64,000 nt of DNA from a virus (IMGVR_UViG_3300027861_000010), one strand, 5' to 3'; numbered from the stretch's first letter, positions 17,389 through 63,056 are shown. A program made the numbers and translations. The notes: generated by a model not told the origin, from the letters alone.

Positions 17389-17449
17389 TTACTTTTGGGG
17401 GACAAGATATACTGCCGACGTGTCGTACGAACTCTCATGGAAGGAAGCA

Positions 17450-29118: not shown

Positions 29119-29170
29119 ACCAGCATCTTCACATCTGATTTCCCAGTATCACAAGTCAAGGAGGATAGTG

Positions 29171-32813: not shown

Positions 32814-32823
32814 GCAGGGAAAC

Positions 32824-33108
32824 ATGGCAAACGAAAAAACAGAACTGACTAAGCGGGAGTTGCAGGTGGTAGCTCTGATCGGTCAGGATAAGAAGTACAA
32901 AGAAATCGCAGAAGAGTTGGAGCTTGGTTATGAAACCGTAAAGACCTACGCTGCTCGAATCCGTAAAAAACTGGGTGTTGGCTCTAAGGTTGCCGTAGCA
33001 CTTTGGGCTCAACAGCACGGCCTGATAACAAACGAGGCCCAGAAAAACATGGACGCAATGTTGAGCGAAAAACCGTGGCTTGCACAAGGTAATAAAGATG
33101 AAGAATAA
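32824..33108 (+). CDS. Stand-alone LuxR/GerE-type HTH regulator
   Basis: LTKRELQVVALI..YKEIAEEL..ETVKTY..RIRKKLGV. Confidence 0.9.
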   Translation: MANEKTELTKRELQVVALIGQDKKYKEIAEELELGYETVKTYAARIRKKLGVGSKVAVALWAQQHGLITNEAQKNMDAMLSEKPWLAQGNKDEE

Positions 33109-39736: not shown

Positions 39737-42031
39737 ATGCTTACAGCAGAAGCCCGTGTGGAGTTGTTGTCTGAAGGCAGTGAAGAACGTCGTAACGGAA
39801 GCCTGACAGTCACGAAACGGAATAGCGATGTTGTTCCGTTCGACGTCCACCGGATTGAGAAGGCCATGCTTGCTTGCATGGTAGATGATCTCAGTTATGA
39901 GTTGGACAAAGCAGAGCCAATTGCGAAGAGTGTTGCCAAGCAGGTTCACAACCTGTTGTGTTTTGAGAAGCAGCCAGTCAGTGTTGAAGTCATTCAGAAT
40001 CTGGTTGAAGCCCAGTTGATGGCTTACGGTTACTATGATGTAGCCAAGCAGTACATTCTCTTCCGCGACGAGAAGCGAAGACTTCGCGAGTCAGCGGAAA
40101 TCCCTGATGAAGTTGTCGAAGCCTTCAAGGCCAATGACAAATACTTCTCTAACGAGATCCAGAAGTTTCAGGCTCTCGACAAGTTTGCTCGGTTCGATCA
40201 TGAACGGGGTCGTCGCGAAACGTGGCCAGAAACTTGTGCCCGTGTCATCAAGTACTTCAAGTGGCACTGCGACAATAAAGGCTACGAAATTACTCCGACA
40301 TATTGGGACCTGTTGGAGCGAAGCCTGCTCGATCTCAAAGCGTCACCCTCGATGCGTTGTGTGCAGATGGCAGGTCCGGCACTGGAGCGGTGCCAGGTCG
40401 GTGTCTACAACTGCTCATTCCAGTTTCTACAAAGCACCCGTGATCTTACCGAAGAGCTTTATGTTCTGATGCAGGGAACGGGTGTTGGCTTTTCAGTGGA
40501 GTACGAGTACGCGACTGAGAAGTTTCCTCGAGTCAAGCGACAGAAGAAGGACGCCGAAGTTGCCACTCACGTCATTGAGGATACGACAGAGGGTTGGTGT
40601 GAGGCATATCGTCTCGGGCTCGATACTTGGTGGGGCGGCCACGATATCAAGTTTGACTTCAGTCAAATTCGTGAAGCCGGTGCTCCGCTCAAGATTAAAG
40701 GCGGCAAGGCATCTGGCCCGGGTCCGTTGAAGGACCTTCTGGAATTTGCCCGTACTCGCATCTTGTTAAAACAAGGTAAGGCCCTTTCCAGTCTCGATCT
40801 CCACGACATCAACTGTTATGCCCACCGCATTGTCCGGATGGGCGGCGTTCGCAGAGCTAGTGGCATATCGTTGACCGATCTTCACGATCGAGAAATGCGG
40901 GATTGCAAGCAGGGCGAGTTTTGGACTCACGACGAGCAGCGAAATCAGGCCAACAATTCTGCCGTCTATAACGAGAAGCCTGATCCGTTGGTTTGGATGG
41001 AAGAGTGGTTAGCGTTGGCTCGAAGCGGGTCGGGAGAGCGAGGCATCTTCAACCGTGGTGCTCTGAAGGCTCAGTTTCCTAAGCGGCGAAAGACACGCGG
41101 TCAACTGTTTGGCACCAACCCTTGTGGTGAGATCATTCTGCGGCACAAGCAGTTCTGTAATCTCTCCATTGCTGTGATTCGTCCGACTGACACGTTGGAG
41201 ACTATTACTGAGAAAGTTATCCTTGCTACGATCTGGGGTACGCTTCAGTCCACAATGACTGATTTCCAGTACATCGGTGACGAATGGAAGAAGAACAGCG
41301 AGGAAGAGCGTTTGCTTGGTGTCGACTTACTCGGCTTCCTTGACCACCCGTTGTTTCAGGATGACGACAAAGCTGGTCCGATCCTGGATGAACTTCGCGA
41401 GGTTGTGAACCGAACCAACCAAGAGTGGGCTGACGCGTTGGGTGTTTCAGCTTCCACAGCTACGACCTGCATCAAACCTTCTGGCGACAGCAGTGTGTTC
41501 TTCGGGACCGCGGCTGGCTTCAAAGGGCACCACGGCGAGCACTATGTTCGTCGTACCCGAGCAAATAACACTAATCCGGTAGCTCAGATGCTGCGGGATG
41601 AAGGTGTTCCTTGCTTTACTGACTATGATGGCAGCGGGTTGGTACTTGAGTTTCCGATGAAGGCACCTAAAGGCGGCGTCTTACTGAAAGATCAAACAGC
41701 TCTGAGTCAGCTGGAGAAGTGGAAAACCTTCAAGCTTCATTGGACAGAGCACAATCCGAGCGTCACGATTTACGTGCGACCGGAAGAATGGCTGGACGTC
41801 GGCAAATGGGTTTACGACAATTGGAATATCGTTGGCGGACTCAGCTTTCTGCCGTATGATGGTGGTGTGTATCACTTGGCTCCGTACGAGGCGATTACTA
41901 AGGAAGACTTCGATAAACGCGTTTCGTTGTTTCCTGAAGTGAACTGGGCCAAGCTTGTTCGTTACGAAAAGTCGGACATGACTGATCTACACCAGCAGGT
42001 TGCGTGTACCGGGGGTGCCTGTGAGATCTGA
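39737..42031 (+). CDS. nrdJ: Class II (AdoCbl) ribonucleotide reductase with ATP cone
   Basis: VTKRNSDVVPFD ATP cone; RRETW, PSMR, YNCSF, GTNPCGEI, TCIKPSG, EHNPSVT, C-terminal ACTGGACEI. Confidence 0.92.
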   Translation: MLTAEARVELLSEGSEERRNGSLTVTKRNSDVVPFDVHRIEKAMLACMVDDLSYELDKAEPIAKSVAKQVHNLLCFEKQPVSVEVIQNLVEAQLMAYGYYDVAKQYILFRDEKRRLRESAEIPDEVVEAFKANDKYFSNEIQKFQALDKFARFDHERGRRETWPETCARVIKYFKWHCDNKGYEITPTYWDLLERSLLDLKASPSMRCVQMAGPALERCQVGVYNCSFQFLQSTRDLTEELYVLMQGTGVGFSVEYEYATEKFPRVKRQKKDAEVATHVIEDTTEGWCEAYRLGLDTWWGGHDIKFDFSQIREAGAPLKIKGGKASGPGPLKDLLEFARTRILLKQGKALSSLDLHDINCYAHRIVRMGGVRRASGISLTDLHDREMRDCKQGEFWTHDEQRNQANNSAVYNEKPDPLVWMEEWLALARSGSGERGIFNRGALKAQFPKRRKTRGQLFGTNPCGEIILRHKQFCNLSIAVIRPTDTLETITEKVILATIWGTLQSTMTDFQYIGDEWKKNSEEERLLGVDLLGFLDHPLFQDDDKAGPILDELREVVNRTNQEWADALGVSASTATTCIKPSGDSSVFFGTAAGFKGHHGEHYVRRTRANNTNPVAQMLRDEGVPCFTDYDGSGLVLEFPMKAPKGGVLLKDQTALSQLEKWKTFKLHWTEHNPSVTIYVRPEEWLDVGKWVYDNWNIVGGLSFLPYDGGVYHLAPYEAITKEDFDKRVSLFPEVNWAKLVRYEKSDMTDLHQQVACTGGACEI

Positions 42032-44574: not shown

Positions 44575-44955
44575 ATGTCAAATAGCTTGGTGAAGTTCAC
44601 CAGCCGGAAGGATGGAAATGGTCGTGGCGAATTATTCTGGGGAAGGGCGGACATTGATGGTCTACCGTTTCGTGGCCACAACCCTCCGTCCATGCGGCAG
44701 GATGAGTTTGAAGAACGAGTCGTTCGAGTCGCGGACCCTAAGAACGGGACGTTCTACACGGGTGACGACGAGGAGAATGCAGCTTTTCTGAAAGTCATGG
44801 ATGGTATCACCAACAGCTGGTACCACATGATCTTCATTGAGCGTTGGCGAGAAGAAGGCGACAAACATCATTACGTTTATGTGGAGTGGGTAGAGTTCTT
44901 CCTTGAGGATGGGAAGCCGACACCTTACGCCCCACCAAGTTCAACAGGGATGTGA
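44575..44955 (+). CDS. Hypothetical protein
   Basis: AAGGA RBS. Confidence 0.65.
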   Translation: MSNSLVKFTSRKDGNGRGELFWGRADIDGLPFRGHNPPSMRQDEFEERVVRVADPKNGTFYTGDDEENAAFLKVMDGITNSWYHMIFIERWREEGDKHHYVYVEWVEFFLEDGKPTPYAPPSSTGM

Positions 44956-44957
44956 TC

Positions 44958-45848
44958 ATGGATCAGAAAACAGCTGAAGAGTTGCTCCAACAAGTGCGAG
45001 CAGCCGCGGAAGAGAAACAGGCCGAGACTGGTTACTCCGGCCTGACCGGTATGTTGTCTAGCATTGGCAAAAGCCAGCCGGACTACGATAACCTGGCTAC
45101 GGCTGTTCGATCCCAGGCAAACTCGAAGATGCAGCAAGGAGCCATGAGCAACGTCATCAAGGCGATGCTTTTGGCTGGCGGAGCTGGTGCTGGCCTTCGA
45201 GGGCTGACAGGTCTTCAACGCATGTTTTCTGGCCAATCTAAGCCGGTATCCAGTCGGACAGTGGACATGCCTGTGGCGTATCCGGTTTCTCCTGAAGAAG
45301 AAGAAGAGAAGACTGCGGAGATCGGTAACTCGAAAGCCACTGCAAACTACGGGTTGAACTGGTACATCCCGTCCATGGTGTTGGGAGCACCGCTGGCTGC
45401 TTACGGGGGCTGGAAAGGCGTCGATGCTATTCTGGATACACAGCGTCGAAAGAAGACCGAATCCGACCTTGATGATGCGAAGAAAAAGTACCAACAAGCT
45501 TTGTTGGGCTCCTACAAGATGTCGGCGGATGAGCAGTCACCAGAAGACGTGCTCGACGCTGTGTTCGACGAACATTACAGCAAGTCCGCTGAAGAAGAAG
45601 GATTCATCGGCGGACTCATCAATCGTTACGCTCCCAATCTTCCCGGCATCAGTCAAGGCTTGGCAGCAGCCTACGCCATTCCGGCCACGGTAGGTGGCTA
45701 CGCTGTTGTTAATTCAATCATGAAGAAGAAGAGCAAGCGAGCTTTGCTTCAGAAAGCCATGCGTGAACGGGCTCGACGACAAGCTCAATCGCAACCTGCA
45801 GAGCTGTATGCAATTCCGCATCCTAAGGAAGAAGAGCAAGAGGTTTAA
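44958..45848 (+). CDS. Putative virion protein with three KxA-delimited hydrophobic modules
   Basis: EKQA, EKTA, SKSA each followed by an amphipathic helix-TM-basic unit. Confidence 0.65.
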   Translation: MDQKTAEELLQQVRAAAEEKQAETGYSGLTGMLSSIGKSQPDYDNLATAVRSQANSKMQQGAMSNVIKAMLLAGGAGAGLRGLTGLQRMFSGQSKPVSSRTVDMPVAYPVSPEEEEEKTAEIGNSKATANYGLNWYIPSMVLGAPLAAYGGWKGVDAILDTQRRKKTESDLDDAKKKYQQALLGSYKMSADEQSPEDVLDAVFDEHYSKSAEEEGFIGGLINRYAPNLPGISQGLAAAYAIPATVGGYAVVNSIMKKKSKRALLQKAMRERARRQAQSQPAELYAIPHPKEEEQEV

Positions 45849-45854
45849 CAAAGC

Positions 45855-48800
45855 ATGGAACCGCTCACGCCAAATCTGCTTGAGCCTTCGACTCCATCTT
45901 TGCTGTCCTCGGCTCCTATCTCTCCACCAAGTCCTCTGCCTGCTCAGCAGCCAGAGGATGATTTTCGTGAATTCGGTGATACCGACAAGACGCGGTCGAG
46001 CATTTACCAACGAGTGCTCCAGGCGGCTCAGTCAATTGAGCCAATTACCAATGAGCGTCACACTCTGCGATTGACCGGGGTCGACTATCAAGACCCCGAT
46101 CGCGTCAGTAAGCGAGATCAGAAAGCCGCTATCCTGGGCGGGTTAAGTCGAGGCCGGAGGCTCCGAGGAACTTGGGAGCTGATGGATAACGCCACAGGTC
46201 AGGTGCTGGATCAGAAGAAGTCCGTATTGATGACCGTGCCTCACATGACGGAACGAGGTACCTTTATCAACAAAGGGACTGAGTACACGTTGAAGAACCA
46301 GCAACGATTGCTTCCAGGAGTGTATACGCGAGTCCGTGACAACGGTGAGATTGAGTCCCACGCCAATATCATGCCCGGCAAGGGAGTTTCGCACCGTTAT
46401 TTCCTTGACCCAGAGAAGGGTGTATTCAAGATCCGATTGGGTCAAGGCACCGTCGGACTAATGCCACTGCTCAAGGCAATGGGAGCTAAACCGGGGCAGC
46501 TTAAAGAAGCCTGGGGCCGGGACCTTTTTGCGTCAAACTACAACGCAGACGACGCCACAGAGTATAAGAAACTCAAGCAGAAGTTTCTTACAAAGAAGGA
46601 ACTCGAAGGCGAAGAGAACGAACAACGGGAAGCGTTGGTCAACAAGTTTGCCAGCATGGAGATGGATCCGCAGGTCACCAGCCGGACGCTGGGCAAGCCT
46701 CATCAAGGGCTGACACTGGACGCTGTCCTGGATATTACGAAGAAGTTGGTTGCGGTCTCTAAGAATGAGGCCGAGCCAGATGATCGAGACTCACTGACGT
46801 TCCAACAGTTTGTCGGGCCGGAAGATTTGTTCGCTGAGCGAATCAAGCGGGACAAGGGTGGCCTGCGTCGAAATCTGTTGTGGAAGATGTCTGGTAAAGG
46901 CAATCTAAAAGGGATGCCGTCCTCGGCTCTCAATAAACAACTGATGGCCGCGTTGATGACTTCAGGTCTGGGTCAGGCGATCGAAGAGATCAATCCTGCT
47001 GAACTTTATGACAAGTCGACGGCAGTTAGTCGTTTAGGGGAGGGCGGCATTCCTTCAACAGATGCGATCCCGAAAGAAGCTCGGAGTGTCCAACCAAGCA
47101 TGCTGGGCTACATCGACCCAGTGCGAACGCCAGAGTCCGGCAAGGTGGGTGTAGACACTTACTTGGCTCGAGGTGCTCGTAAGGGAAAGGACGGAAAACT
47201 CTACTCACAGTTCCGCGACGTAAAGACAGGGAAACTGCTTTACAAGTCGCCGCAGGATGTGGCGGATATGACCATTGCCTTCCCAGGCAGTATGGATCAA
47301 CGCAGCAAACGAGTTGCAGCCATGCGTAACGGGAAGATGACGTACGTGCCGAAGGATGAAGTTGATCTGGTGTTGCCTTCAATGGAGGAGGCATTTAATC
47401 CGTTGTCCAACATCATTCCTATGAAGAGTCAGGTGAAAGGGCAACGGTTGGTGATGGCGTCTCGAATGACGACGCAAGCCTTGCCGATCGTGGACGCCGA
47501 AGCTCCGTTGGTACAGTCAGCAATTCCGGACACAGATGGCAACCAAAGTTACGAAGAACTGTACTCAAACAATATGGGAGCGTTGCGGGCTCCCCAGGGT
47601 GGTGTTGTCAAAAGTGTTGATGACGACGGGATCACAGTTCGATACGAAGACGGCACCGAGGAAACTCACGATCTGTATCAGAACTTCCCGTTCAACCGAA
47701 AGACGTTCATTCACCAAACTGCAAACGTAAAGCCCGGTGATCAGTTTAAGCCAGATCAGTTGCTGGCCTATTCCAATTACACAGACAAAGGTGGAGCAAC
47801 AGCTCTCGGTAGGAACGCCAGAACCGCTTACATTGCCTGGCAGGGAAAGAACTTTGAAGACGCTGTGGTTGTCTCAGAAAGCTTTGCTCGGAAAATGTCT
47901 TCTGAGCACATGTATCAACACGACTTGGAGGTCGATGATAAGACGAAGGTTGGAAAGAAGCAGTTCATCCAACAGTTCCCAGGTAAGTTCGACAAAGCGA
48001 CACTCGCTAAGCTCGACGAGAACGGAGTCATCAAACCTGGAACTGTCGTGAACTATGGTGATCCTTTGATTCTCGGGGTTACACAGCGAGAAGCGGCCCA
48101 CAACAAGGTTCACAAGAAAGGTCAATCGGGGTTTAACGATGCAACAGTCACTTGGAATCATCACGACGCTGGCACCATTACCGATGTGGTTATGGGCAAA
48201 AAAGGGCCGACTGTCGTTGTTAAAGCATCCTCCCCAACCCAGACCGGCGACAAGCTATCAGGCCGTTACGGTGACAAAGGAGTCATTGCTGACATCATCC
48301 CAGACGGTGAAATGCCGCATAACGGTGATGGTCAGCCCTTTGAAGTGTTACTCAATCCGCTCGGAGTAATCACTCGAACCAATCCGGCTCAGATGGCTGA
48401 GTTACTTCTTGGCAAGATTGCGGCCAAACGCGGCAAGCCGATCAAAGTGCAGGACTTTGACTCCCAGAAGGACATGGCTGCCTGGGTCATGGAGGAACTG
48501 GGCCGGGAAGGCCTATCCGATCTCGAAGATGTCCTCGATCCGTCCAAGGATCAGAAGGTCAAAGGAATCGCTACGGGCAACCGGTTCTTTATGAAGCTGC
48601 ACCACACAGCTGAGTCCAAGGGACAAAGCCGCGGCGGCGGGTCTTACACGATGGAGGACACACCGGCTAAGGGAGGGTCAGAGGGTTCCAAGCGTGTCGG
48701 CATGTTGGATACCAACGCACTGTTGTCTCACGGAGCTACGGCGACTCTGCAAGACGTCAGCTCTGTACGTGGACAGAAGAATGACGAGTACTGGATGCAG

Positions 48801-50309
48801 TTCATGGCCGGGTACAACCCGAAGGCTGCGAAAGTTCCGTTGGTGTACCGGAAGTTTGTCGATCAGTTGAGGGCCGCAGGTGTCAATGTGACCAAACAGG
48901 GTACCCAGACCAACATCATGGCCCTGACGGACAAAGATATCGACGAAATGGCTGGAGATCGTAAGCTGACCTCCGCCGAAGGTGTTGATTGGGGTGAGTC
49001 TCTTAAGGAGATTCCAGGTGGTTTGTTCGATAAGGCCAAGACTGGAGGTCATGGCGGCAACAAATGGTCGTACATGCAGCTGCATGAGCCCTTGCCTAAC
49101 CCTGTAATGGAGGAACCGCTTCGGCGACTCCTCGGACTCACGAAAAAGGACTTCAATGCCGTCATTTCAGGCGAAAAGCCGTTGGGATCGCACGGAGCAG
49201 GTCCTGGAGCCCTGAAAAAGGCTCTGGAGTCGATGAATGTTGATGCAGAGATCAAGAAAACCCGAAATATCATCCAAGCTGGGCGAGCATCGGAGCGGGA
49301 TGCCGCAGTAAAGAAGCTGGGCTACCTAAAATCAGCCAAAAAGCTCGGATTGAAGCCTGAAGACTATGTTTTGAGTAAAGTTCCTGTCCTGCCGCCGATG
49401 TTTCGGCCTGTCAGCATGATGAGCAACGATATGCCGCTCATCAATGACGCGAACTTTCTTTACAAAGAGCTTTTCGAGGCTAATTCCAACCTGAAAGCAA
49501 TACAGAAGGAGCTCGGCAACGACGCGTCGGGGCAAGAGCGACTCGCAACGTACAATGCCTTCAAGGCAGTGACAGGTTTGGGCGATCCGATCCATCAGAA
49601 GACCCGAGACAAGAACGTCAAAGGTATTTTGAAGACAGTGTTCGGCTCGAGCCCCAAGTTTGGCACGCTGCAACGTAAATTGATCTCCACAACGGTCGAT
49701 AATGTCGGTCGAGCGGTGATCACACCAAATCCTGATCTCGATATGGATTCTGTTGGCCTGCCAGAGGACAAAGCGTTCAAGGCGTACGACAAGTTCATCA
49801 CCAGGCGACTGGTGCGACAAGGAATGTCACTTCGAGCAGCTCGTAACGAAGTTGCAAATAAATCGAAGCTGGCTCGGAAACTTCTGTTGGAGGAAATGGA
49901 TGAACGACCGGTCTATATCAGTCGGGCTCCAGTTCTTCACAAGTTCGGTATCATGGCTATGAAGCCTCGATTAACCAAAGGTAGCACCTTGCAGGTGAGC
50001 CCTTTGATTGTGAAAGGTTTCAACGCTGACTTCGACGGCGATGCCATGAATTACAACGTCCCAAGTACGGAGAAGGCTCGTAAGGAAGCGATCGAGCGAC
50101 TTTTGCCTTCCCGTAACTTGTTCAGTCTGTCAGACTTCAAGTCTGTGATGCATGCTCCAGCTAACGAGTATGTTGGTGGTTTGTTTCATGCAACGAAGTC
50201 AAAAAGTGACCGTCCCAAGAAGATTTTCCGAACAGCCGCGGACGCGAGGAAAGCGTACGAGCGAGGTGATATCTCTATCGACGATCGCGTTCAAATCTTA
50301 GAATCGTAA
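45855..50309 (+). CDS. rpoB/rpoC: Multisubunit RNA polymerase: beta fused to N-terminal half of beta'
   Basis: beta motifs PHMTERGTF, TPESGKVG, NFEDAVVVS, GDKLSGRYGDKG, LNPLG, MKLHH; beta' motifs PVLPP, GRAVI, RAPVLH, catalytic NADFDGD at 50022-50042. Confidence 0.95.
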   Translation: MEPLTPNLLEPSTPSLLSSAPISPPSPLPAQQPEDDFREFGDTDKTRSSIYQRVLQAAQSIEPITNERHTLRLTGVDYQDPDRVSKRDQKAAILGGLSRGRRLRGTWELMDNATGQVLDQKKSVLMTVPHMTERGTFINKGTEYTLKNQQRLLPGVYTRVRDNGEIESHANIMPGKGVSHRYFLDPEKGVFKIRLGQGTVGLMPLLKAMGAKPGQLKEAWGRDLFASNYNADDATEYKKLKQKFLTKKELEGEENEQREALVNKFASMEMDPQVTSRTLGKPHQGLTLDAVLDITKKLVAVSKNEAEPDDRDSLTFQQFVGPEDLFAERIKRDKGGLRRNLLWKMSGKGNLKGMPSSALNKQLMAALMTSGLGQAIEEINPAELYDKSTAVSRLGEGGIPSTDAIPKEARSVQPSMLGYIDPVRTPESGKVGVDTYLARGARKGKDGKLYSQFRDVKTGKLLYKSPQDVADMTIAFPGSMDQRSKRVAAMRNGKMTYVPKDEVDLVLPSMEEAFNPLSNIIPMKSQVKGQRLVMASRMTTQALPIVDAEAPLVQSAIPDTDGNQSYEELYSNNMGALRAPQGGVVKSVDDDGITVRYEDGTEETHDLYQNFPFNRKTFIHQTANVKPGDQFKPDQLLAYSNYTDKGGATALGRNARTAYIAWQGKNFEDAVVVSESFARKMSSEHMYQHDLEVDDKTKVGKKQFIQQFPGKFDKATLAKLDENGVIKPGTVVNYGDPLILGVTQREAAHNKVHKKGQSGFNDATVTWNHHDAGTITDVVMGKKGPTVVVKASSPTQTGDKLSGRYGDKGVIADIIPDGEMPHNGDGQPFEVLLNPLGVITRTNPAQMAELLLGKIAAKRGKPIKVQDFDSQKDMAAWVMEELGREGLSDLEDVLDPSKDQKVKGIATGNRFFMKLHHTAESKGQSRGGGSYTMEDTPAKGGSEGSKRVGMLDTNALLSHGATATLQDVSSVRGQKNDEYWMQFMAGYNPKAAKVPLVYRKFVDQLRAAGVNVTKQGTQTNIMALTDKDIDEMAGDRKLTSAEGVDWGESLKEIPGGLFDKAKTGGHGGNKWSYMQLHEPLPNPVMEEPLRRLLGLTKKDFNAVISGEKPLGSHGAGPGALKKALESMNVDAEIKKTRNIIQAGRASERDAAVKKLGYLKSAKKLGLKPEDYVLSKVPVLPPMFRPVSMMSNDMPLINDANFLYKELFEANSNLKAIQKELGNDASGQERLATYNAFKAVTGLGDPIHQKTRDKNVKGILKTVFGSSPKFGTLQRKLISTTVDNVGRAVITPNPDLDMDSVGLPEDKAFKAYDKFITRRLVRQGMSLRAARNEVANKSKLARKLLLEEMDERPVYISRAPVLHKFGIMAMKPRLTKGSTLQVSPLIVKGFNADFDGDAMNYNVPSTEKARKEAIERLLPSRNLFSLSDFKSVMHAPANEYVGGLFHATKSKSDRPKKIFRTAADARKAYERGDISIDDRVQILES

Positions 50310-50339
50310 CTGCTTGACGCAGATAAGGAGATCAAACAA

Positions 50340-51029
50340 ATGGGCATCAACCCAGAATTGCTGAAGCTGGCTCGCCATAATGTCGGTCAGCAAAAAGTTG
50401 CTTTCGTTCCCGCTGGTGATCCTACAATGGGTGGGGATCCTGCTGCTGGGGGTGCTCCAATGGACCCTGCCGCAGCTGGCGGTGCTCCGCCGATGGATCC
50501 AATGGCCGCAGGCGGAGCTCCACCGATGGACCCGGCTGCTGGCGGCGGTGATCCGCTTGCCGGACTTCAACCGATGATCCAACAAGCTGTTCAGCAGGCT
50601 ATGGCCGCTGGCGGCGGCGGTGGCGGCGGTGCTCCCGGCGAGGCAGCCATCAAGCCAAAGATCGACATCAACGTCGAAGTCATGCAGATGAAGAAACTGT
50701 TGGCCAAGCTGTGCGATGCGATGGGTGTTCAGATTCCAGCCGCTGAAATGGTTGCGACACCTGAAGACCTTAATCAAATGGCAGCAGGCGGTCCCGGGGC
50801 CGCGGCAGCCACTCCGGACGGCGGTGGCGGCATGCCTGGTGGAGATCCGGCAGCTGGCGGCGGAGCCATTCCGCCGATCGAACCGATGAAGGCTGCGGAA
50901 GACTGGGAAGCAGGCGTAGCGTTCACTCCGCCTGCGGCTTACGACTTCCAGAATTCACACTCGACCACAAAGAATACCGCTAACATGGCTGCGGCTATGC
51001 TCCTGCGGAATCGCACAAAGGTCTCTTAA
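50340..51029 (+). CDS. Pro/Gly/Met-rich protein with GGAPPMDP repeats
   Basis: QKVA leader; MDPAAAGGAPP repeats; one folded-looking segment KPKIDINVEVMQMKKLLAKL. Confidence 0.7.
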   Translation: MGINPELLKLARHNVGQQKVAFVPAGDPTMGGDPAAGGAPMDPAAAGGAPPMDPMAAGGAPPMDPAAGGGDPLAGLQPMIQQAVQQAMAAGGGGGGGAPGEAAIKPKIDINVEVMQMKKLLAKLCDAMGVQIPAAEMVATPEDLNQMAAGGPGAAAATPDGGGGMPGGDPAAGGGAIPPIEPMKAAEDWEAGVAFTPPAAYDFQNSHSTTKNTANMAAAMLLRNRTKVS

Positions 51030-51256
51030 TGTTCATTGTTGAGATAGTTGAAGCCATCGGGAAGCCTCCATTACGTGTGGAGGCTTCCCAAGTTGTGGTC
51101 CGTATGCCTGACGGAACGCCCGTTAGTTTGGCCGCACTTTATGGAAGCTCCGAAAGTGTCCTGGTATCGCACTGTGAGGACGAGACTTTTAATGACAACC
51201 TCCGAAAACTAGGACTGAACGATACCGTAATCTCTGAAACCCTGAAGGTGAAATAA
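51029..51256 (+). CDS. Small hypothetical protein
   Basis: TAATG overlap. Confidence 0.6.
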   Translation: MFIVEIVEAIGKPPLRVEASQVVVRMPDGTPVSLAALYGSSESVLVSHCEDETFNDNLRKLGLNDTVISETLKVK

Positions 51257-51257
51257 C

Positions 51258-51986
51258 ATGGCCGGACCACTCCGATCAGCTGACAAGGCGTACTACGCTT
51301 CAAAGCAACCCCTATTTCTTCGCGGCACTCGCGAAGGTCGAAAGAACCCTGCACCCAACCCGTCGTACAAGCAGAAAGCGAACGACGTGACCGCGTCGTC
51401 GAACAAGTATTACGCCGCAATGGAGCCAGTGGCTACTTCGGTTCAGCCTGCCGCAGGTCAGAAACTGCAGACGACGTTCGCTCCAGAAAAGGTCGCTACG
51501 CTTCAGGCAAAGGCACAGGTCTTGCCGGACGTAGTTGCTGCCTTTCAAGGTGGAGCCACAACCGTACGTATCGAAGGTGAGTCCGCAGACATCAACAAGT
51601 CACGAGCCGCGGTTGAAATGGCTGTTGGACGTAAGACGCTGACACGGGAGCAGTCTGACCGTGTTGTTTTTGTCCCGGTACAAAAGCCCGCCACTTCTAA
51701 CGAGGTGGAGGTAGTAAGTACCGAAGAAGCCCCAGCCGTTCCTGTTGAAGCGGAAGCCATTTTGAATCCACCTGCGGAAGTCACGAAAACGCCAAAGAAG
51801 AAGACGACACGTAAGAAGACGACCAGGAAGAAGAAGACCAACACTGCTGCGGATGTTCCTGCAAGTGTTCCTGCAGAAGTGCAGGAACCGGCAGCGGAAG
51901 ATGATTCAGTGACTGAAGCTGACATTGCAAGTGCATTCGGAGTCGCGGACGACTCGGATGATTTCGATGCTGACAGTGACGATTAA
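51258..51986 (+). CDS. Hypothetical protein with histone-H1-like KKTTRKK tract and acidic tail
   Basis: PKKKTTRKKTTRKKKTN; C-terminal DDSDDFDADSDD. Confidence 0.7.
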   Translation: MAGPLRSADKAYYASKQPLFLRGTREGRKNPAPNPSYKQKANDVTASSNKYYAAMEPVATSVQPAAGQKLQTTFAPEKVATLQAKAQVLPDVVAAFQGGATTVRIEGESADINKSRAAVEMAVGRKTLTREQSDRVVFVPVQKPATSNEVEVVSTEEAPAVPVEAEAILNPPAEVTKTPKKKTTRKKTTRKKKTNTAADVPASVPAEVQEPAAEDDSVTEADIASAFGVADDSDDFDADSDD

Positions 51987-51998
51987 GTGAGTTTGTGA

Positions 51999-54900
51999 AT
52001 GCTCAACACTACAGTTGGACAACTGCTGGTCAACGAGGCCCTTCCTGACGAGCTTCGCGATTACAATCGCGTGCTCGACAATAAGGGTATGCATGCACTG
52101 CTCCAACAAGTGGCTCGAGAGCATCCAGACAAGTACCGTGAAGTTTCATTCAAGTTGAATCAGGTTGGTCAACGTTCCGCCCAAGACCAGGGCGGAATGT
52201 CGTTTAGTGCTCGACACCTGAAGCGTTCGCCGTATGCGAATGAAACTCGATCACGCATTCAGGCTCAACTGGGTAAGGTACTTGACGACGATTCCTTAAC
52301 TGACGAGCAGCGAGCGGCCAAAGTTGTTCGTATTGTTGGCAAAGAGATGGAACCTCAACAGAAGGCAATTCTGGAGGAGGCCATCAAAGACAAAAATCCC
52401 CTAGCGATGCAGGTGCTATCAGGTAGCCGCGGGAAGCCAATGAACTTGGCCAGCCTGTTGGGTGCTGACATGTTGTACTCAGATCATCGCGACGAGGTAA
52501 TTCCGATTCCGGTACTTCGCAGTTACAGCGAAGGGCTGACACCTGAAGAATACTGGGCCGGAACGTACGGAGCTCGTCGCGGCATTATCGCAACGAAGTT
52601 CGCCACTCAGGAAGCTGGTTTCTTATCTAAGCAGCTCAACCAGGCTGGACACCGGCTGGTGGTGATGGATGAAGAGGGCGAGGATGACGATCGCCGCGGT
52701 ATGGTTGTCGATACGGACGACATGGATAACGAAGGGTCATTACTGGCCCGCGACATGGGACCGTACAAGCGAAATACTCCGCTGACACCGAAGATTCTCA
52801 AGCACTTAAAGCGTCTCGGTAAAAACCGGATTTTAATCCGATCACCGCTGGTTGGCGGCTCGCCGGAAGGTGGAGTCTATGCTCGGGATGTCGGTATTCG
52901 AGAGACTGGTAAGTTGCCTGGCCGCGGCGAACAGGTCGGCTTGCAAGCAGCACAGGCATTAAGTGAACCGATCAGCCAAGGCCAATTGTCGGCTAAACAC
53001 TCGGGCGGCGTTGCTGGCCAAGAGAAAGCTGTCGGCGGTTTCCAGGCAATCAACCAGCTGATCCAGGTACCCAAGAAGATGCAAGGCGGAGCCGCTCACT
53101 CAGAAAAGGACGGCATCGTCCAACGAGTGGAGAAAGCTCCGGCTGGCGGACACTACGTCACGATCAACGATAAGCAACATTACGTTGGAGAAGGTTTTGA
53201 CGTCAAAGTCAAAAAGGGCGACGAAATCGAAGCGGGCGATCTGCTGAGTAACGGCATTCCTAATCCGGCCCTGATCGTGAAGTACAAGGGCGTAGGCGAA
53301 GGTCGTCGTTACTTTGTTAATGAGTTCCGCAAGGCGATGGCCGGAGGCGGAATGCAAGGGCATCGTCGTAACATCGAGCTGCTGGCTCGCGGACTCATCA
53401 ATCACGTCAAGATGACCGACGAGACTGACGAGCATGCTCCGGACGATATTATTCCTTACTCAACATTGGAGCACACCTATAAGCCGAGAGGAGACTCTCA
53501 GTTGTTGGCTCCAAAGAAAGCCGTCGGACAATACTTAGAGCGTCCGGTATTGCACTACACCATCGGCACCAAGATCCGCCCTTCGATGTTGAAAGACTTC
53601 GAGGAGTTCGGCATCACCGACTTGCCAGTCCATAAAGAACCACCTCCGTTCCAGCCGCACATGGTTCGAGGGATGTATACACTTCAACATGACCCAGACT
53701 GGATGACCCAGATGTACGGGTCTGGACTGAAGAAGAGTCTGTTGAATTCCACTGCTCGTGGTGCAACCAGCGATGCTCGAGGAACCAGTTTTGTTTCCAG
53801 TCTGGCTGAAGGCTCTGATTTCGGTGAGGTTGCAGATCGTGCTGTGATTCAGCCGAAGCCTTCGTACGAGTTGCCTAAGATTGAGCCACCTGCTCCTGAG
53901 GAAGAAAAGCTTCCGGCTCCTGCCGCTCCGCCTACACCGTCGTTCTTCGGTGGTCGGTTCAAGACTGGTATGCATAAACAGGCTGAGGAACCCAAAGTTC
54001 CGACAGCACCAAAAACGCCAGCAACGCAATCGCTTGCTGCACCATTGGCACCGACACCTGCTCCGACTGGGGCAGGTAATATGTCGTCGAATATCATGCC
54101 TTCGTCAGGACCTACAGCTCAGGATTTCATGCCAGCACCGGGTCAGTTGGGTTCACAAGAGAATCCCAACGGCATTATGCCTCCGGATCAGTTGCAGCAG
54201 TATGCTCAGAATGCTCAACAGCAGAATGACCGCGGGATGCGGATGGTGGGTGTAGACCCGATGTCTGATCCGTTCAGAACGCAGACAACTGCGGCAACGC
54301 CTCCGCCGTCAACTCCAGCTCAAGCCCGAGCCGACCAGGTACAGCAACAACGTAGCTACGGTAGTGGCAACACTCAAACGGATATGCGGACTTTGTTCGC
54401 TCAGGCACCTTCGAGAACCTTAGCTGGTAACTCCCTGGCACGGAAGATGCGTCGAGGGGATGCTCGTACAATGGGGATCCAGGCAGCTCGACAACGTGCT
54501 CAACAGATACAGAACGAGCAAGCTGCTCGCCGGAATCTGTACCAACAGGCCCACCCACAGCGAGCTTATGACCCTATACCGGGGCCGTCAGTCGCGGGAC
54601 CATTACCTGCAGAGCAGTCACAAAGTCCCGTACCGGCAACTGGCGAGATGGGTTATGGTGACGTGGCTGGCACTTTACTTGCCGGACAACATGCCTGGAC
54701 GCAAGGCGGTAGAGTTTGGAATGCGGCGGCTAAAGGTGAAATGCTTACGCACGGTTCACAGCTAGGCAAGTCACTCAATCCTGGAGCACAGAAAGGCGTT
54801 CAGACGGTAAATCAGTTGGCCCGTACCGCAGCACACAAGACCCCAGGACTCGGACGCTTTGTTGCTGCCACAAGTGATGATGCCGCCCGGGCTGCTGGAG

Positions 54901-55886
54901 CAAGCAGCAAAGGACTCTCAAAGGCCCTTGGTCCTGCTGCTTTTGTGTTGGAAGGTGGGCTTATCGGGAAAGACATTTACGATAAGACACAAGAAGGGCA
55001 ATCGTTTGGTCGGGCCTGGAAAGAGCAGGCGGATGAGCACGGAGCTAATACTCGAGGCCTGTTTACTGACTGGGATGGCGGTGCTCACGAGATATATCAG
55101 AAACCTATTGATGTGGCGATGCATGTGCTGAGCCCGGTAGCTACTGTGCAGGAAGGAACACAATTGGCCGCCGAAGTCGGCGGCGGTCTCGGAGATATGG
55201 CCACAGGTGCGTGGAACTTCGCGTCGGATGCTGAGGGACGTAACCGGGCAGCAGCAAAAGCCGAAACCGAACAAATGATGGCTGATCGCCAGGAGGCTCT
55301 ATCAGGAGAGCAGGACCAGATCCGGTCAACGCTGGAAAATAATAAAACAATCTCGCCGATGCAGAAAGAAGAGTTACGCCAACGCTCTGCCGAGTTAGAC
55401 TTACGGAAGCAGGAAGCCCAGTTGAAAGCTGACGCGGCCACGGACGAAACAGAAGGCTGGCAGCTCGGTAAGCAACACACATTTGGTACTGGTGGACATT
55501 ACTTTCGTGACGCAATGGCCGGGACAGGGAACCGGCTTTCAGCGAAAATCGAAAAATTACAGGCTAACCAGGATAGTCTGACACCAGAACAACAGTTCGA
55601 TTTGAAGAATATGATTCGCAGGCGTGACGAGATGAAGAGGCTGGGAGACTTTTACAGTCGCGAAGTTGGCTATTTTGGTGAAGGAGATTTCACTAAAATT
55701 ATGCGAATCCGTGTGCGAAACATAAAAGTCCAGTCAGTGGAACTCGCCCGGCGACTACGCGAGCCTGCTGTAAAAGGGAACCCTCAGCTTACAATGGAGT
55801 TGGAAGCTGAGATGCGACATCAACAAACCCGCCTTGCAAACATGAAAAGCTGGGCTAGACAGGCCAAGAATCAGAAGGTCAAGTAG
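51999..55886 (+). CDS. rpoC: RNA polymerase beta' C-terminal half (aa 1-~610) fused to a ~630-aa Pro/Gln/Gly-rich extension
   Basis: TTVGQLL, SGSRG, bridge helix EGLTPEEY..GARRG..T..AGFL, trigger loop GLQAAQALSEP..Q..KHSGG; HKQA at aa 659-662 precedes the non-RNAP tail. Confidence 0.9.
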   Translation: MLNTTVGQLLVNEALPDELRDYNRVLDNKGMHALLQQVAREHPDKYREVSFKLNQVGQRSAQDQGGMSFSARHLKRSPYANETRSRIQAQLGKVLDDDSLTDEQRAAKVVRIVGKEMEPQQKAILEEAIKDKNPLAMQVLSGSRGKPMNLASLLGADMLYSDHRDEVIPIPVLRSYSEGLTPEEYWAGTYGARRGIIATKFATQEAGFLSKQLNQAGHRLVVMDEEGEDDDRRGMVVDTDDMDNEGSLLARDMGPYKRNTPLTPKILKHLKRLGKNRILIRSPLVGGSPEGGVYARDVGIRETGKLPGRGEQVGLQAAQALSEPISQGQLSAKHSGGVAGQEKAVGGFQAINQLIQVPKKMQGGAAHSEKDGIVQRVEKAPAGGHYVTINDKQHYVGEGFDVKVKKGDEIEAGDLLSNGIPNPALIVKYKGVGEGRRYFVNEFRKAMAGGGMQGHRRNIELLARGLINHVKMTDETDEHAPDDIIPYSTLEHTYKPRGDSQLLAPKKAVGQYLERPVLHYTIGTKIRPSMLKDFEEFGITDLPVHKEPPPFQPHMVRGMYTLQHDPDWMTQMYGSGLKKSLLNSTARGATSDARGTSFVSSLAEGSDFGEVADRAVIQPKPSYELPKIEPPAPEEEKLPAPAAPPTPSFFGGRFKTGMHKQAEEPKVPTAPKTPATQSLAAPLAPTPAPTGAGNMSSNIMPSSGPTAQDFMPAPGQLGSQENPNGIMPPDQLQQYAQNAQQQNDRGMRMVGVDPMSDPFRTQTTAATPPPSTPAQARADQVQQQRSYGSGNTQTDMRTLFAQAPSRTLAGNSLARKMRRGDARTMGIQAARQRAQQIQNEQAARRNLYQQAHPQRAYDPIPGPSVAGPLPAEQSQSPVPATGEMGYGDVAGTLLAGQHAWTQGGRVWNAAAKGEMLTHGSQLGKSLNPGAQKGVQTVNQLARTAAHKTPGLGRFVAATSDDAARAAGASSKGLSKALGPAAFVLEGGLIGKDIYDKTQEGQSFGRAWKEQADEHGANTRGLFTDWDGGAHEIYQKPIDVAMHVLSPVATVQEGTQLAAEVGGGLGDMATGAWNFASDAEGRNRAAAKAETEQMMADRQEALSGEQDQIRSTLENNKTISPMQKEELRQRSAELDLRKQEAQLKADAATDETEGWQLGKQHTFGTGGHYFRDAMAGTGNRLSAKIEKLQANQDSLTPEQQFDLKNMIRRRDEMKRLGDFYSREVGYFGEGDFTKIMRIRVRNIKVQSVELARRLREPAVKGNPQLTMELEAEMRHQQTRLANMKSWARQAKNQKVK

Positions 55887-55896
55887 GGTGCTTGTA

Positions 55897-55926
55897 TTGC
55901 GACATTCACACAGAACCGGCTACACT
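55897..55926 (+). promoter_or_regulatory. Possible sigma70-like promoter
   Basis: TTGCGA-N18-TACACT in intergenic DNA. Confidence 0.4.
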
Positions 55927-55971
55927 GAGTAGGCAATCAGCCCTTTTTTTGTAAGAATTTGGACGGCCACG

Positions 55972-56229
55972 ATGACAGCTATGCCAACTCTAGGAGGTCT
56001 TGACGAGAAGTACGCGGGAGCGTACCTCATTCGACCGACCGCCAAACCGAAGAAAAAGAAGAAGAAGAAGTCCAAGCGTCCTACATTAAAGGGCCTTGAT
56101 AAGGCGGCTGCTGATGCGGCGGTGCAAGCGATTTCTGCTCAACAGATTGCAATGCGGCAGCGTTTACAGTCTGGCGACTTGGGTGGCGGTTGGAATCCAT
56201 TCGATCAACTGACTGACAACAATTCATAG
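55972..56229 (+). CDS. Small basic protein with poly-Lys tract
   Basis: KPKKKKKKKSKR flanked by EKYA and DKAA. Confidence 0.55.
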   Translation: MTAMPTLGGLDEKYAGAYLIRPTAKPKKKKKKKSKRPTLKGLDKAAADAAVQAISAQQIAMRQRLQSGDLGGGWNPFDQLTDNNS

Positions 56230-60452: not shown

Positions 60453-61827
60453 ATCTGATGAGCAGTTGCTGCTCGATGGCGTCAAGCAGGCGGTGGCCTT
60501 GGTGGATAACCAAGATCTATCGCCAAATGCTGCGATGCATAAGGTGGCTGAGGAGTTACAGTACTCCCCAGGCTTCCTCAAGGCAGCATGCAACGCGTTC
60601 AACAACGGGCGACAACTTGCCCAGTGGAACGCCAATGACTCCGTGTTGGATAAGTTGGCCAGCTTCCCGCTCGCCAATTACGACGAGATCCACGATACGA
60701 TGTGGGGTACGACACAGGAGAAGGTCGCATCTGTTTCATCGTTCGGCCCTAAGTTCGACACGTACGAAGAGCAATCTCGGCGGGAACTGTTGAACATGGA
60801 CCTGTCGAGCTTTGAGAAAGCCGCATCAGATGCTCCTGAAGTGCATCCGTTGGTGGCGGACGAACACGCTGATATGCGGTCCAAGCGAGCCTACTCTGAT
60901 TTTGAGTTCGCTCGGAGGGAGCTGGAAGAAGCTCGCCGCGAGAAGTCGTCCAATGACGACCGACTCAACCTGAAGATGCACTTGCTGGAGAATTACTTCC
61001 GCAAGTTTGCTTATGATCGTTTGCCGTTTGCCCAAGTAGAGCACGGCGTAGCGACTTATTTCGGGGAGCCCGGTAAAGCTCTGATGGGCTACATCGCCGA
61101 GCGATTTCCTCGAGAGAAGCGAGCTTCGGACCACCAATCAACTTGGGATGGTTTTCAGCAGCCGGTGAATCGACGACAAGAACCCTACGCTCTGATCGCT
61201 GATTGCATCAAGCAAGCCAAGGATCTGTATGCGGCCACAGTTCAACTCGCTGCCGCTGAGGAAAAGTTCGCCAAAGCAAAGGAAGGTGTTGCCCCTTTTT
61301 CACAACCCCGATCCCCAGAGTCGAATGGGAGCCAGCCTACCCTGACTCCATCGTTGATTGCTGATGGATCGGGGGAAAAGCAGGCCAACATTTTTGGAGG
61401 CATCGCTGGAGGCATGGGGCTTGGAGCTGCTAGGTCCATGACCGAAGGACTGGGCAGCGACCCGGAAGCTCGGATCGAGAAGCAGATTTCTGAACTGGAA
61501 AGCCCCGACCATCTGAACGAGATGCGAAAGATTCGAGCTCAGACCGTATTGACTCAGCTGATGAGCGATCCTGACAGCCCGCTCAGCGGCTACGATCCGG
61601 AAGAAGTGCTGACCGCATACAATGAAATGGTGCAACTGTCGCCCCGATTAGCAGATCAACCTGCGGCCATTGCTCCGCTCCTCAACAAGCGGTTGATGGG
61701 TAACACTGAGCCTTTCGAGGTTGGCGAGCAAGTCAAACTCGAGAAGGGACTCAAGGACGTACAGGCCCCACAGTCAGCACCCAAACCAGTGGACTTGATG
61801 AAAAATGAAGCCAGTATCATTAGCTGA
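60436..61827 (+). CDS. Putative scaffold-like pro-protein, KxA-rich N-terminal two-thirds
   Basis: 12 of the first 20 Lys are in KxA; helical/coiled-coil character; lies upstream of the protease. Confidence 0.65.
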   Translation: MQSLSKSDEQLLLDGVKQAVALVDNQDLSPNAAMHKVAEELQYSPGFLKAACNAFNNGRQLAQWNANDSVLDKLASFPLANYDEIHDTMWGTTQEKVASVSSFGPKFDTYEEQSRRELLNMDLSSFEKAASDAPEVHPLVADEHADMRSKRAYSDFEFARRELEEARREKSSNDDRLNLKMHLLENYFRKFAYDRLPFAQVEHGVATYFGEPGKALMGYIAERFPREKRASDHQSTWDGFQQPVNRRQEPYALIADCIKQAKDLYAATVQLAAAEEKFAKAKEGVAPFSQPRSPESNGSQPTLTPSLIADGSGEKQANIFGGIAGGMGLGAARSMTEGLGSDPEARIEKQISELESPDHLNEMRKIRAQTVLTQLMSDPDSPLSGYDPEEVLTAYNEMVQLSPRLADQPAAIAPLLNKRLMGNTEPFEVGEQVKLEKGLKDVQAPQSAPKPVDLMKNEASIIS

Positions 61828-63052
61828 TATCACGTACGAGCAAGGACTCCAGTTGATTGTTCTGCGAAAGCAGGCTCTGGATTCTGGCAAAGTACGTCGC
61901 ATGCCCAAAGAGGCTCTGGACAGCAATTACCCGCTGCACGCTATCGGTACGCAAGTGCTGGAGAAGGTTGCAGAGGGTGGTTTTATGGACGGCATCGGTA
62001 AGTCGTTATCGAGCGGACTCAGCGGAGCCAAGGACTGGTTCGGTAAGTTGGATCCGACTGTGAAGTCCACGCTGATCGGCGGCGGACTTGGAGCAGGCAC
62101 CGGCTTGGCAGCATCCGCCATGAATCGGGATCGGCATTGGCTCCGTAACGCCTTGATGGGCGGTGTAGCCGGTAGTGCAATCGGTGGCGGTATTGGTGTT
62201 GCCCGTAACCCGGGTGCTGCTGACAAGATTCGAGACAAGCTCACTGGCTTCGCTGAGAGCTTCAATAACAAGGACGCCCCGAAACCAACAGCCGAAGCAG
62301 CACCTGGCGGCGGATCACCAACACCTGCCCCACTTGAAGACAAATCCGTTGCAGGTCGAGCTCGGCAACTGGTCGATGCAGATCCTGAAACTTCTGCCAG
62401 CCAGATTGATTCCCTGCGAACTGACGCTGAGAGTTGGGCTCCGGAAATTGTTCACGGAACTGGAGCGGCTGGAACGGTCGGAGCCACAGGTTACGCCCTG
62501 CGTAAGTTGCAGCAGATGAAAGGGTATGACCCTGACGCGATGCTGACTCACCTGGGTCAAATGGCTGACGATACTCCAAACCTTCCTCGTAAGTTGGATT
62601 CGATTGGTATTCGTACCATGGATCAAACTGACGAGGCGTTGAGAGGGCTGGGTCCAATCGCTACTCAGCCGGGTCGAGATGCAGCATTGTGGCGGCAATT
62701 TCGAGCCAACCCGCAAGACCCAGCTCTGCGGAAGCAGATTGAAAAACTGTTGGCTGCTCGGGGAATCAAACGTAATTTGATGGGTGGTGTCGCGGCAAAG
62801 GGTTCACCTGCACTGAAGAATTTCCTTGCAGGCAGCGGTGATGATGCCCTTGAAACCGTCCTGAGCAAAGGCTTCAGCGGCAGACGACCTGTTCGAGGCG
62901 GAGCTGCTGGTCTACTTGTCGGAGCTAGCGGGTTAGGGCTCAAGGGGCTATGGGACAGCTACAAATCACAGCAAGCTCACCGCACGGACGCTAAGAATGT
63001 TCTTGACGCCGTGCGAGCTGAACTAGCAAAACGAAATGCCGCAGGCGGGTAA
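61805..63052 (+). CDS. Gly-rich putative virion protein
   Basis: RKQA and EKVA leader, then amphipathic GFMDGIGKSL and glycine-zipper TM segments. Confidence 0.7.
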   Translation: MKPVSLADITYEQGLQLIVLRKQALDSGKVRRMPKEALDSNYPLHAIGTQVLEKVAEGGFMDGIGKSLSSGLSGAKDWFGKLDPTVKSTLIGGGLGAGTGLAASAMNRDRHWLRNALMGGVAGSAIGGGIGVARNPGAADKIRDKLTGFAESFNNKDAPKPTAEAAPGGGSPTPAPLEDKSVAGRARQLVDADPETSASQIDSLRTDAESWAPEIVHGTGAAGTVGATGYALRKLQQMKGYDPDAMLTHLGQMADDTPNLPRKLDSIGIRTMDQTDEALRGLGPIATQPGRDAALWRQFRANPQDPALRKQIEKLLAARGIKRNLMGGVAAKGSPALKNFLAGSGDDALETVLSKGFSGRRPVRGGAAGLLVGASGLGLKGLWDSYKSQQAHRTDAKNVLDAVRAELAKRNAAGG

Positions 63053-63056
63053 CGAT

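Follow-up and report, generated by a model that had tools for sequence, protein, structure and literature searches.

A phage-encoded RNA polymerase combining a fusion of beta to the N-terminal half of beta-prime with a separate gene for the C-terminal half

Few machines of life are better conserved than multisubunit RNA polymerases, and the boundaries between their subunits are used as evolutionary markers. Here we describe a polymerase in which these boundaries have been redrawn. It is encoded on a stretch of 64,000 nucleotides, referred to throughout as the window, from the viral genome IMGVR_UViG_3300027861_000010. The window is part of the genome, roughly 190-200 kb in size, of an uncultured marine tailed phage, and represents about a third of it. 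Two large genes are involved, both on the plus strand. The first, open reading frame 1 (ORF1; 45855-50309), encodes a protein of 1484 amino acids in which the reading frame passes from beta into the N-terminal, catalytic half of beta-prime (beta-prime-N). The second, ORF2 (51999-55886), encodes a protein of 1295 amino acids that contains the C-terminal half of beta-prime (beta-prime-C). An earlier reading of the sequence by itself, hereafter the original prediction, had placed both frames at exactly these positions and had proposed that the enzyme combines a fusion with a split, on which Pfam, PDB, hidden Markov model (HMM) and structural alignments now agree.

The modular nature of ORF1 is apparent from domain searches. 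Pfam places the beta domains Rpb2_3 and Rpb2_6 at residues 374-933 (E 5e-49 for Rpb2_6) and the beta-prime domains Rpb1_1 and Rpb1_2 at residues 1157-1414 (E 6e-24 for Rpb1_2). In phmmer searches of the PDB, residues 55-1039 resemble bacterial beta nearly end to end and residues 1087-1481 resemble the first half of beta-prime, with residues 1116-1481 corresponding to Escherichia coli beta-prime 181-550. The beta module (45855-48899, plus strand; residues 1 to about 1015), as delimited by a family HMM compared with E. coli beta and by motif alignment, is complete, and it is unsplit from residue ~55 to residue ~1015. The HMM covers residues 54-229, 420-932, 1050-1130 and 1177-1338 of the 1342 in E. 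coli beta. The module is compact in that two insertions of the E. coli lineage, near beta 230-420 and 933-1050, are missing from it, and its flap tip is 8 residues shorter than that of E. coli by motif alignment. The beta-prime-N module (48900-50306, plus strand; residues ~1016-1484) comprises the clamp, the lid/rudder region and the catalytic double-psi barrel, and its best Foldseek matches are the gamma subunits of cyanobacteria and plastids (E 7e-31).

At the fusion junction (48894-48911, plus strand) the end of beta, ...AAGVNVTKQG, passes directly into the first residues of beta-prime, TQTNIMALTDKDI..., and neither a linker nor a stop intervenes. Residue 1338 of the 1342 in E. coli beta falls at family HMM position 1013, and family positions 1019-1064 (lnimaltdkdid...GGLFDkaltG) correspond to residues 15-58 of the Streptomyces beta-prime frame (LRIGLATADDIRQWS...DGLFCEKIFG). 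An AlphaFold model of ORF1 residues 860-1484, made from 49 sequences, has a mean predicted local distance difference test score (pLDDT) of 78.8, with values of 81-95 in the junction region. VIA-align superposes this model on about 405 residues of beta-prime N-halves with Z 22-23, and model residues 157-160 (ORF1 1016-1019) coincide with residues 5-9 of beta-prime from Thermus and Mycobacterium and of cyanobacterial gamma, and with residues 16-18 of E. coli beta-prime. Because the end of beta in the HMM and the structurally aligned start of beta-prime meet at this point, the join is seamless at nucleotide ~48900, within a few codons of the position near 48890 first proposed. A global pairwise alignment of the junction against E. 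coli beta-prime 1-190 scored poorly and was unconvincing, and the HMM and structural alignments were used instead.

To judge from its sequence, the enzyme is the catalytic core of a bacterial-type two-barrel RNA polymerase with all of its catalytic motifs intact. The active-site motifs of beta, GDK...GdKG and LKLxH, are both kept, and the lysine motif GDK...GdKG aligns to E. coli GDKMAGRHGNKG. The magnesium-binding motif NADFDGD (50022-50042, plus strand) lies at residues 1390-1396 of the fused protein, in the beta-prime half as had been predicted; it aligns to NADFDGD of E. coli, and an alignment of 49 relatives shows no variation at its D, D, G and D. The fused protein ends about 90 residues beyond this motif. 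The remaining elements are found in ORF2, which carries the bridge helix at residues ~186-214 and the trigger loop at residues ~316-339. ORF2 aligns here to E. coli beta-prime 765-830 and 880-945, and the histidine equivalent to H936 is kept.

The polymerase part of ORF2 is confined to residues 1-610. This beta-prime-C core (51999-53828, plus strand; residues 1 to ~610) is defined by Pfam, PDB, the HMM and alignment of ORF2 residues 5-609 to gp216 of the cultured Salmonella phage Arash, a relative discussed below. Pfam finds Rpb1_5 at residues 179-478, the PDB search relates residues 1-491 to the part of beta-prime that comes next after that in ORF1, and the HMM comparison covers E. coli beta-prime 571-952 and 1187-1286; the E. 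coli insertion SI3 is missing. The N-terminus reads MLNTTVGQ, in which NTTVGQ aligns to DTTVGR at about residue 571 of E. coli beta-prime. With ORF1 ending at the equivalent of E. coli residue ~550, some 20 residues of beta-prime are missing between the two proteins. A separate beta-prime-C gene with a TTVG start, bridge helix and trigger loop, 1.7 kb downstream, had been foreseen, and the gap measures 1.69 kb.

The original prediction requires amendment with regard to the rest of ORF2, as this protein is beta-prime-C plus a large unrelated tail. The C-terminal extension (53829-55886, plus strand; residues ~611-1295, about 690 amino acids) is built of a Pro/Gln/Ala-rich linker followed by a domain of about 330 amino acids at residues ~955-1290. 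This domain matches only four relatives (L003, L005, L007 and L008), at 28-31% identity. Beyond residue ~490-610, ORF2 has no match in PDB, Pfam or PHROG, and an Atlas feature search with residues 940-1295 gave scores of at most 0.84 to unnamed viral clusters, which is within the range of chance. The counterparts of ORF2 vary in length accordingly with the presence of a tail: 654 amino acids in L004, which is 76% identical and has no extension, 606-609 in Arash and Vibrio phage D69, and 1060 and 1206-1369 elsewhere. In L006 the tail differs from those of the other relatives. In Arash, gp216 adjoins the helicase gp217; an origin of the extension by fusion of this helicase was considered and rejected, there being no similarity between the two (E 0.24).

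Both proteins are also devoid of cysteine. Together they contain none in 2779 residues, whereas about 35 would be expected from the 1.28% cysteine content of the other ORFs in the window (Poisson P ~4e-16), and therefore both zinc sites of beta-prime are gone. At the position of the deleted N-terminal zinc-binding domain (49044-49070, plus strand), GGLFDKAKTG, GHGGNKW and then SYMQLHEP are found in place of the four-cysteine zinc ribbon, and the region occupies 50 family positions (1065-1114) as against about 200 in Streptomyces beta-prime (59-260). At the second site, the equivalents of C814, C888, C895 and C898 (E. coli numbering) are all replaced in ORF2. The fused proteins of relatives contain 0-2 cysteines. 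Metabolic enzymes encoded in the window have a normal cysteine content, as exemplified by ribonucleotide reductase with 16. Several other large ORFs are nearly or fully cysteine-free: 1447-4278 (943 amino acids) has one cysteine, while 4431-7124 (897 amino acids), 17378-18385 (335), 44952-45848 (298) and 61805-63052 (415) have none. Among the large cysteine-poor ORFs, one is tail-fibre-like and one has an N-terminal NUDIX domain. Cysteine avoidance may be a mark of virion proteins in this phage.

In a further amendment to the original prediction, the arrangement is not a one-off but belongs to a large family that includes cultured members and, in the case of Arash, virion proteomics. The layout is common to hundreds of uncultured phages and a few isolates. 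A database clustered at 90% identity holds at least 120 relatives of the fused protein at 54-95% identity, mostly of 1470-1500 amino acids and all with PF00562 and PF00623; one close relative is encoded on a 198-kb contig. When beta-prime-N was used as the query against 1.84 billion cluster representatives at 50% identity, the 150 best matches all had E < 1e-123, and in the long members among them beta-prime-N lies at the C-terminal end of a beta-containing protein. One short match (P0249, 500 amino acids) that might have been taken for a stand-alone beta-prime-N is the product of a gene truncated at the edge of a contig of 1589 bp. The samples that harbor the family come from sea, lake and sewage, where it is abundant. 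Many members carry inteins or LAGLIDADG homing endonucleases in the fused gene (P0043, P0060, P0102, P0116 and others); these proteins are 1800-3350 amino acids long, match in two or three stretches and contain PF14528, PF14890 and PF03161. Similarly, an annotated homing endonuclease interrupts the fused polymerase gene of Vibrio phages D181 and D148.

The cultured members in GenBank are Salmonella phage Arash (OQ632216.1) and Vibrio phages D69, D148 and D181, all of which share the layout, with the beta-prime-C gene a few kb downstream. Arash gp206 (1525 amino acids) is 31% identical to ORF1 over its full length, and gp216 (606 amino acids) is 25% identical to the core of ORF2. As in the window, the fused protein of Arash and D69 is almost free of cysteine and falls in the same clade, there is one polymerase set per genome, and in Arash the polymerase genes occupy the same position relative to the homologue of the window ORF at 63036-64000. 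Arash and D69 are distant relatives only, however, and just three window ORFs match Arash by tblastn. Their beta-prime-C is without the ~690-residue extension and keeps 4 cysteines, their intervening genes differ from those of the window, and sigma-like genes matching region 2, which Arash has, are not found in the marine relatives. The database records and the paper on Arash call the two proteins "beta" and "beta-prime" with no mention of a fusion (PMC10585845). With the fused protein labelled "beta" in public annotations, the layout is hidden from database users.

Five relatives' genomes of 181-205 kb, of which three are at least 94% complete and two of these are rated 100%, allow the number of polymerase genes to be counted. 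Each has one PF00562 region and one PF00623 region, both in a single frame of ~1480-1525 amino acids. No alpha or omega family (PF01000, PF01193, PF01192) was matched at E 0.1 in these five genomes, with positive controls detected in 14 of 14 genomes. By Pfam, sigma region-2 matches are limited to Arash and were not found in the marine relatives, while region-4 matches are patchy; in the nearest relative, as in the window, the region-4 match is a GerE-type helix-turn-helix (HTH) protein of 75 amino acids.

Several known systems resemble this enzyme in part. The phiKZ/AR9-type polymerases are also phage-encoded two-barrel enzymes without alpha or omega, and one phiKZ set is packaged and injected. 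Their beta-prime is split just after the catalytic barrel, as in the window enzyme, the position in phiKZ being taken from the literature rather than from an alignment (PMC7598289). In other respects they are split differently, as had been predicted: beta consists of two to three polypeptides and is never joined to beta-prime, each genome has a virion set and a paralogous non-virion set, and there is a fifth subunit of the gp68 type. In the window enzyme, by contrast, beta is whole and fused, and the relatives' genomes hold one set. Similarity to the phiKZ-type PHROG families is also weaker (1e-25) than that to the cell-like beta/beta-prime families (1e-72), and no phiKZ-type polymerase is found among the top structural matches of the beta-prime-N model.

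A likeness is also seen in mReC, Carin-5, YerA41 and RHph_Y65, large tailed phages with a compact, alignable beta and beta-prime that branch outside the bacteria, as does the window family. In mReC, the published table gives beta (920-1563 amino acids) and beta-prime (907-1370 amino acids) as separate genes (Weinheimer & Aylward 2020, PMC7481178). The defining pattern of mReC is of separate genes, each for at least 800 amino acids, with NADxDGD in that for beta-prime, whereas NADFDGD of the window lies in the beta-containing gene, a distinction drawn from the published tables. The IMG sample numbers of the window's IMG/VR relatives are absent from the mReC supplementary tables (PMC7481178). 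One mReC contig, 3300000243_SA_S2_NOR18_50m_1000001, lists genes _40 (beta), _47 (beta-prime-C) and _50 (beta-prime-N) together with _76 (beta) and _78 (beta-prime) (PMC7481178, Supplementary Data 1); with two gene sets on one contig, certain mReC phages may possess a pair of polymerases, in one of which beta-prime is split. The three cultured phages, with genomes of 145-207 kb, keep their cysteines, unlike the window family, and lie outside the fused clade (support 97). Cobetia phage Carin-5 has sigma, then beta-prime (1083 amino acids) and then beta (927), whereas Yersinia phage YerA41 has beta-prime-N (556), beta-prime-C (518) and then beta (924), so that in both beta-prime precedes beta, the reverse of the bacterial order. 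The beta-prime split of YerA41 is further on than the sites in the phage family and in cyanobacteria, and Rhizobium phage RHph_Y65 has an unsplit beta-prime of 1127 amino acids.

Among cellular organisms, Helicobacter and Wolbachia have a full head-to-tail fusion of beta to beta-prime, with the whole of beta-prime attached and with alpha and omega present. In these genera, as in the window enzyme, the C-terminus of beta is joined to the N-terminus of beta-prime, which is possible because these two termini lie together in the clamp, but in the window beta-prime is cut at ~550, after the catalytic barrel, and the context is that of a phage. In cyanobacteria and plastids, beta-prime is likewise divided shortly past the catalytic barrel, into gamma (RpoC1) and RpoC2. 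The original prediction of a split near the cyanobacterial one stands insofar as the site is similar, but the two are not identical, because RpoC2 starts about 20 aligned positions later and the TTVG segment is in gamma there and in ORF2 of the phage. Moreover, cyanobacteria encode beta in a gene of its own and have the zinc sites, alpha and omega, and in our trees the cyanobacterium lies apart from the phage clade. None of phiKZ/AR9, mReC, Carin-5, YerA41, RHph_Y65, Helicobacter, Wolbachia or the cyanobacteria has beta and beta-prime-N together as one chain, and the layout was described in no paper found by literature searches, which had most subscription journals outside their reach.

The best explanation for these observations, and in our judgement a probable one, is that this pair of genes supplies the complete catalytic core of the only bacterial-type RNA polymerase of the phage; we infer in addition that the enzyme is packaged and that the fusion replaces alpha. 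Being packaged and injected appears to be its likeliest role here, and one that is favored by a fair margin over any other, because the Arash orthologues are among the most abundant virion proteins. In purified Arash virions gp206 is the most detected protein, with 3516 spectra, 100% coverage and 128 unique peptides, while gp216 gives 1210 spectra, the major capsid protein gives 1333 and the sigma-like protein gp10 is present (PMC10585845). The authors of that study suggested a role in early transcription (PMC10585845). By analogy with Arash, the capsid would contain the window enzyme, which would be injected together with the DNA and would carry out transcription of the early genes, at the least, with no need of the host polymerase.

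An enzyme of the same architecture might instead be made after infection from early genes transcribed by the host, and go on to transcribe the middle and late genes in the manner of T7-type and phiKZ non-virion polymerases without ever being packaged. We think this unlikely, although it deserves to be taken seriously. There is one polymerase set per genome, so something must transcribe the late genes, and the Arash authors allow that abundant infection-phase enzymes may contaminate virion preparations (PMC10585845). The close relative L004 is without the C-terminal extension, a possible packaging handle, and for the marine clade the case for packaging is an indirect one. On the other side, the fused protein exceeds even the major capsid protein in Arash virions, both phages have their polymerase genes in the morphogenesis region, and the total avoidance of cysteine is unlike the composition of the metabolic enzymes of the window. 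The packaged and post-infection roles are not exclusive.

The view that the polymerase is the phage's only one, and that it is packaged, has a number of points that weigh against it. The argument for packaging draws on a single study of a single, distant relative (31% identity), in which co-purification would be possible. None of the sequencing runs listed as holding the junction stretch is an RNA run. The single polymerase set may also, or only, act later in infection, and a divergent second polymerase, alpha, omega or sigma may lie below the sensitivity of Pfam.

It is very improbable that the genes are cellular, either through bacterial contamination or through recent capture from a bacterial lineage with the same fused-and-split layout. 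The closest sequences outside the family are indeed bacterial beta (320-400 bits) and beta-prime (230-255 bits) against the family HMM, scores that exceed those of other phage polymerases such as YerA41 and Carin-5, and the order of beta then beta-prime is that of the bacterial rpoBC operon. However, in a pattern scan of 185,579 species genomes the best cellular hits, among the matches listed, are ordinary rpoB and rpoC at 28-32% identity, and at 80 of 80 cellular loci inspected beta and beta-prime are separate ORFs. Trees were calculated from beta and beta-prime-N columns aligned to the family HMM, and are quick LG+G4 trees, unrooted and with long-branch warnings. In these, 37 fused proteins, including those of Arash and D69, form one clade with a support of 100 in the Shimodaira-Hasegawa-like approximate likelihood ratio test (SH-aLRT), and the branch that divides them from 57 bacteria, drawn from 10 phyla that include the cyanobacteria but with Helicobacter and Wolbachia outside the sample, measures about 1.5 changes per site. 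When YerA41, Carin-5 and RHph_Y65 are added, the bacteria split off at 100 and the fused family at 97, with all phage rows on one side of the bacteria/phage split. On these alignments, then, the fused family is not nested in any sampled bacterial group, let alone in a cellular clade of the same architecture, and the trees fit a single origin of the fusion, which they neither date nor root. The surroundings are also those of a phage, with genes on one strand, tail-fibre and phage-type nucleotide-metabolism genes, and terminal repeats in the IMG/VR relatives.

Least credible of all, to the point of being negligible, is that the fusion is an error, in which rpoB-like and rpoC-like genes that are in fact separate were joined through a missed stop, a frameshift or a chimeric assembly. 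A single metagenomic contig could in principle carry such an error, but no supporting evidence was found. The stretch 48295-49612 is identical, with 0 differences and 0 indels, in contigs from three independent seawater runs (2016, 2018 and 2024), and hundreds of diverged relatives, complete isolate genomes among them, keep the frame open even where identity has fallen to 31%. In addition, more than 150 clusters at 50% identity share the layout, the peptides of Arash gp206 cover the whole protein (PMC10585845), and the junction folds well in the AlphaFold model. Run contigs compared with the window report no indel anywhere in 45800-56000, and at least 20 runs of seawater or marine metagenomes contain the junction stretch. 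The layout is thus confirmed as real and is not an assembly error.

The two polymerase genes are separated by 1.69 kb containing three ORFs, all on the plus strand. The first (50340-51029) encodes 229 amino acids with Gly/Pro/Ala/Met-rich repeats, a product that is probably disordered; it is 48-65% identical in L003-L009 and has no BLASTP counterpart in Arash or D69. The second (51029-51256) encodes 75 amino acids and is 63-76% identical among close relatives. The third (51258-51986) encodes a low-complexity protein of 242 amino acids that has a basic patch rich in Lys and Thr and an acidic C-terminus, and that is weakly conserved (31-36%). The three belong to no Pfam or PHROG family, and their conservation is limited to close relatives. 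They are not counted here as polymerase subunits, though the conserved 75-residue protein may be one.

The long ORFs of the window are nearly all on the plus strand. They include a nucleotide-sugar epimerase (27801-28838; PHROG 540), an SbcD-type repair exonuclease (29069-30496; PHROG 704) and the ribonucleotide reductase (39737-42031; PHROG 367), while most of the remainder have no family. An ORF at 63036-64000 (plus strand), which runs off the window, has 8 cysteines and no Pfam or PHROG family; over 181 residues it is 39% identical by tblastn to Arash 146893-147366, in the head-gene region of that phage. It and the two polymerase genes are the three ORFs shared with Arash, where they are in the same order and adjoin the portal, structural and major capsid genes.

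The original prediction had found no alpha, omega or sigma gene in the window. This stands in that the neighboring ORFs tested gave no Pfam or PHROG match, alpha and omega included; the one related item among the ORFs scanned is an HTH protein of the GerE/LuxR type, 75 amino acids in length, encoded at 32797-33021 (plus strand), 13 kb upstream of the polymerase. The protein matches Pfam GerE (3.5e-15) and Sigma70_r4_2 (3.8e-08), and is conserved in an 80%-identical relative (G003). From these matches it may be a minimal sigma-region-4-like factor for the phage polymerase, or it may only be a regulator.

If the enzyme does act as a packaged, single polymerase, a possible mechanism can be outlined. 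The covalent link between beta and beta-prime would take over the job of the alpha dimer in holding the two large subunits together, a role that we infer from the way in which the bacterial polymerase assembles. Beta-prime-C would dock on the fused protein as RpoC2 docks on gamma in cyanobacteria. The lack of cysteine and zinc would fit a protein that survives outside the cell and refolds after ejection. With regard to promoter choice, Arash packages a sigma-like protein, and in the window the small sigma-region-4-type HTH would be the only candidate for such a part. A bolder version, which we offer tentatively and consider somewhat doubtful as a whole, is of a two-chain polymerase adapted for travel: the link would replace the alpha-dimer platform; being without omega, zinc or cysteine would permit packing in the capsid, unfolded passage through the tail and refolding free of cofactors; a small promoter factor would suffice; the whole transcription programme would be independent of the host; and the tail of beta-prime-C would be a module for capsid targeting or ejection.

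The family represents a third way in which phages have re-cut this enzyme, and one that is without alpha, omega, zinc or cysteine. As such it provides a natural test of the purpose of the alpha platform and of the zinc sites. With two chains in place of the four to five in the phiKZ and AR9 enzymes, it may also lend itself more readily to structural and biochemical study. Cultured members, namely Arash and the Vibrio phages, make the family experimentally approachable now. Phages equipped in this way would be insensitive to defences directed at the host polymerase, and to drugs such as rifampicin.

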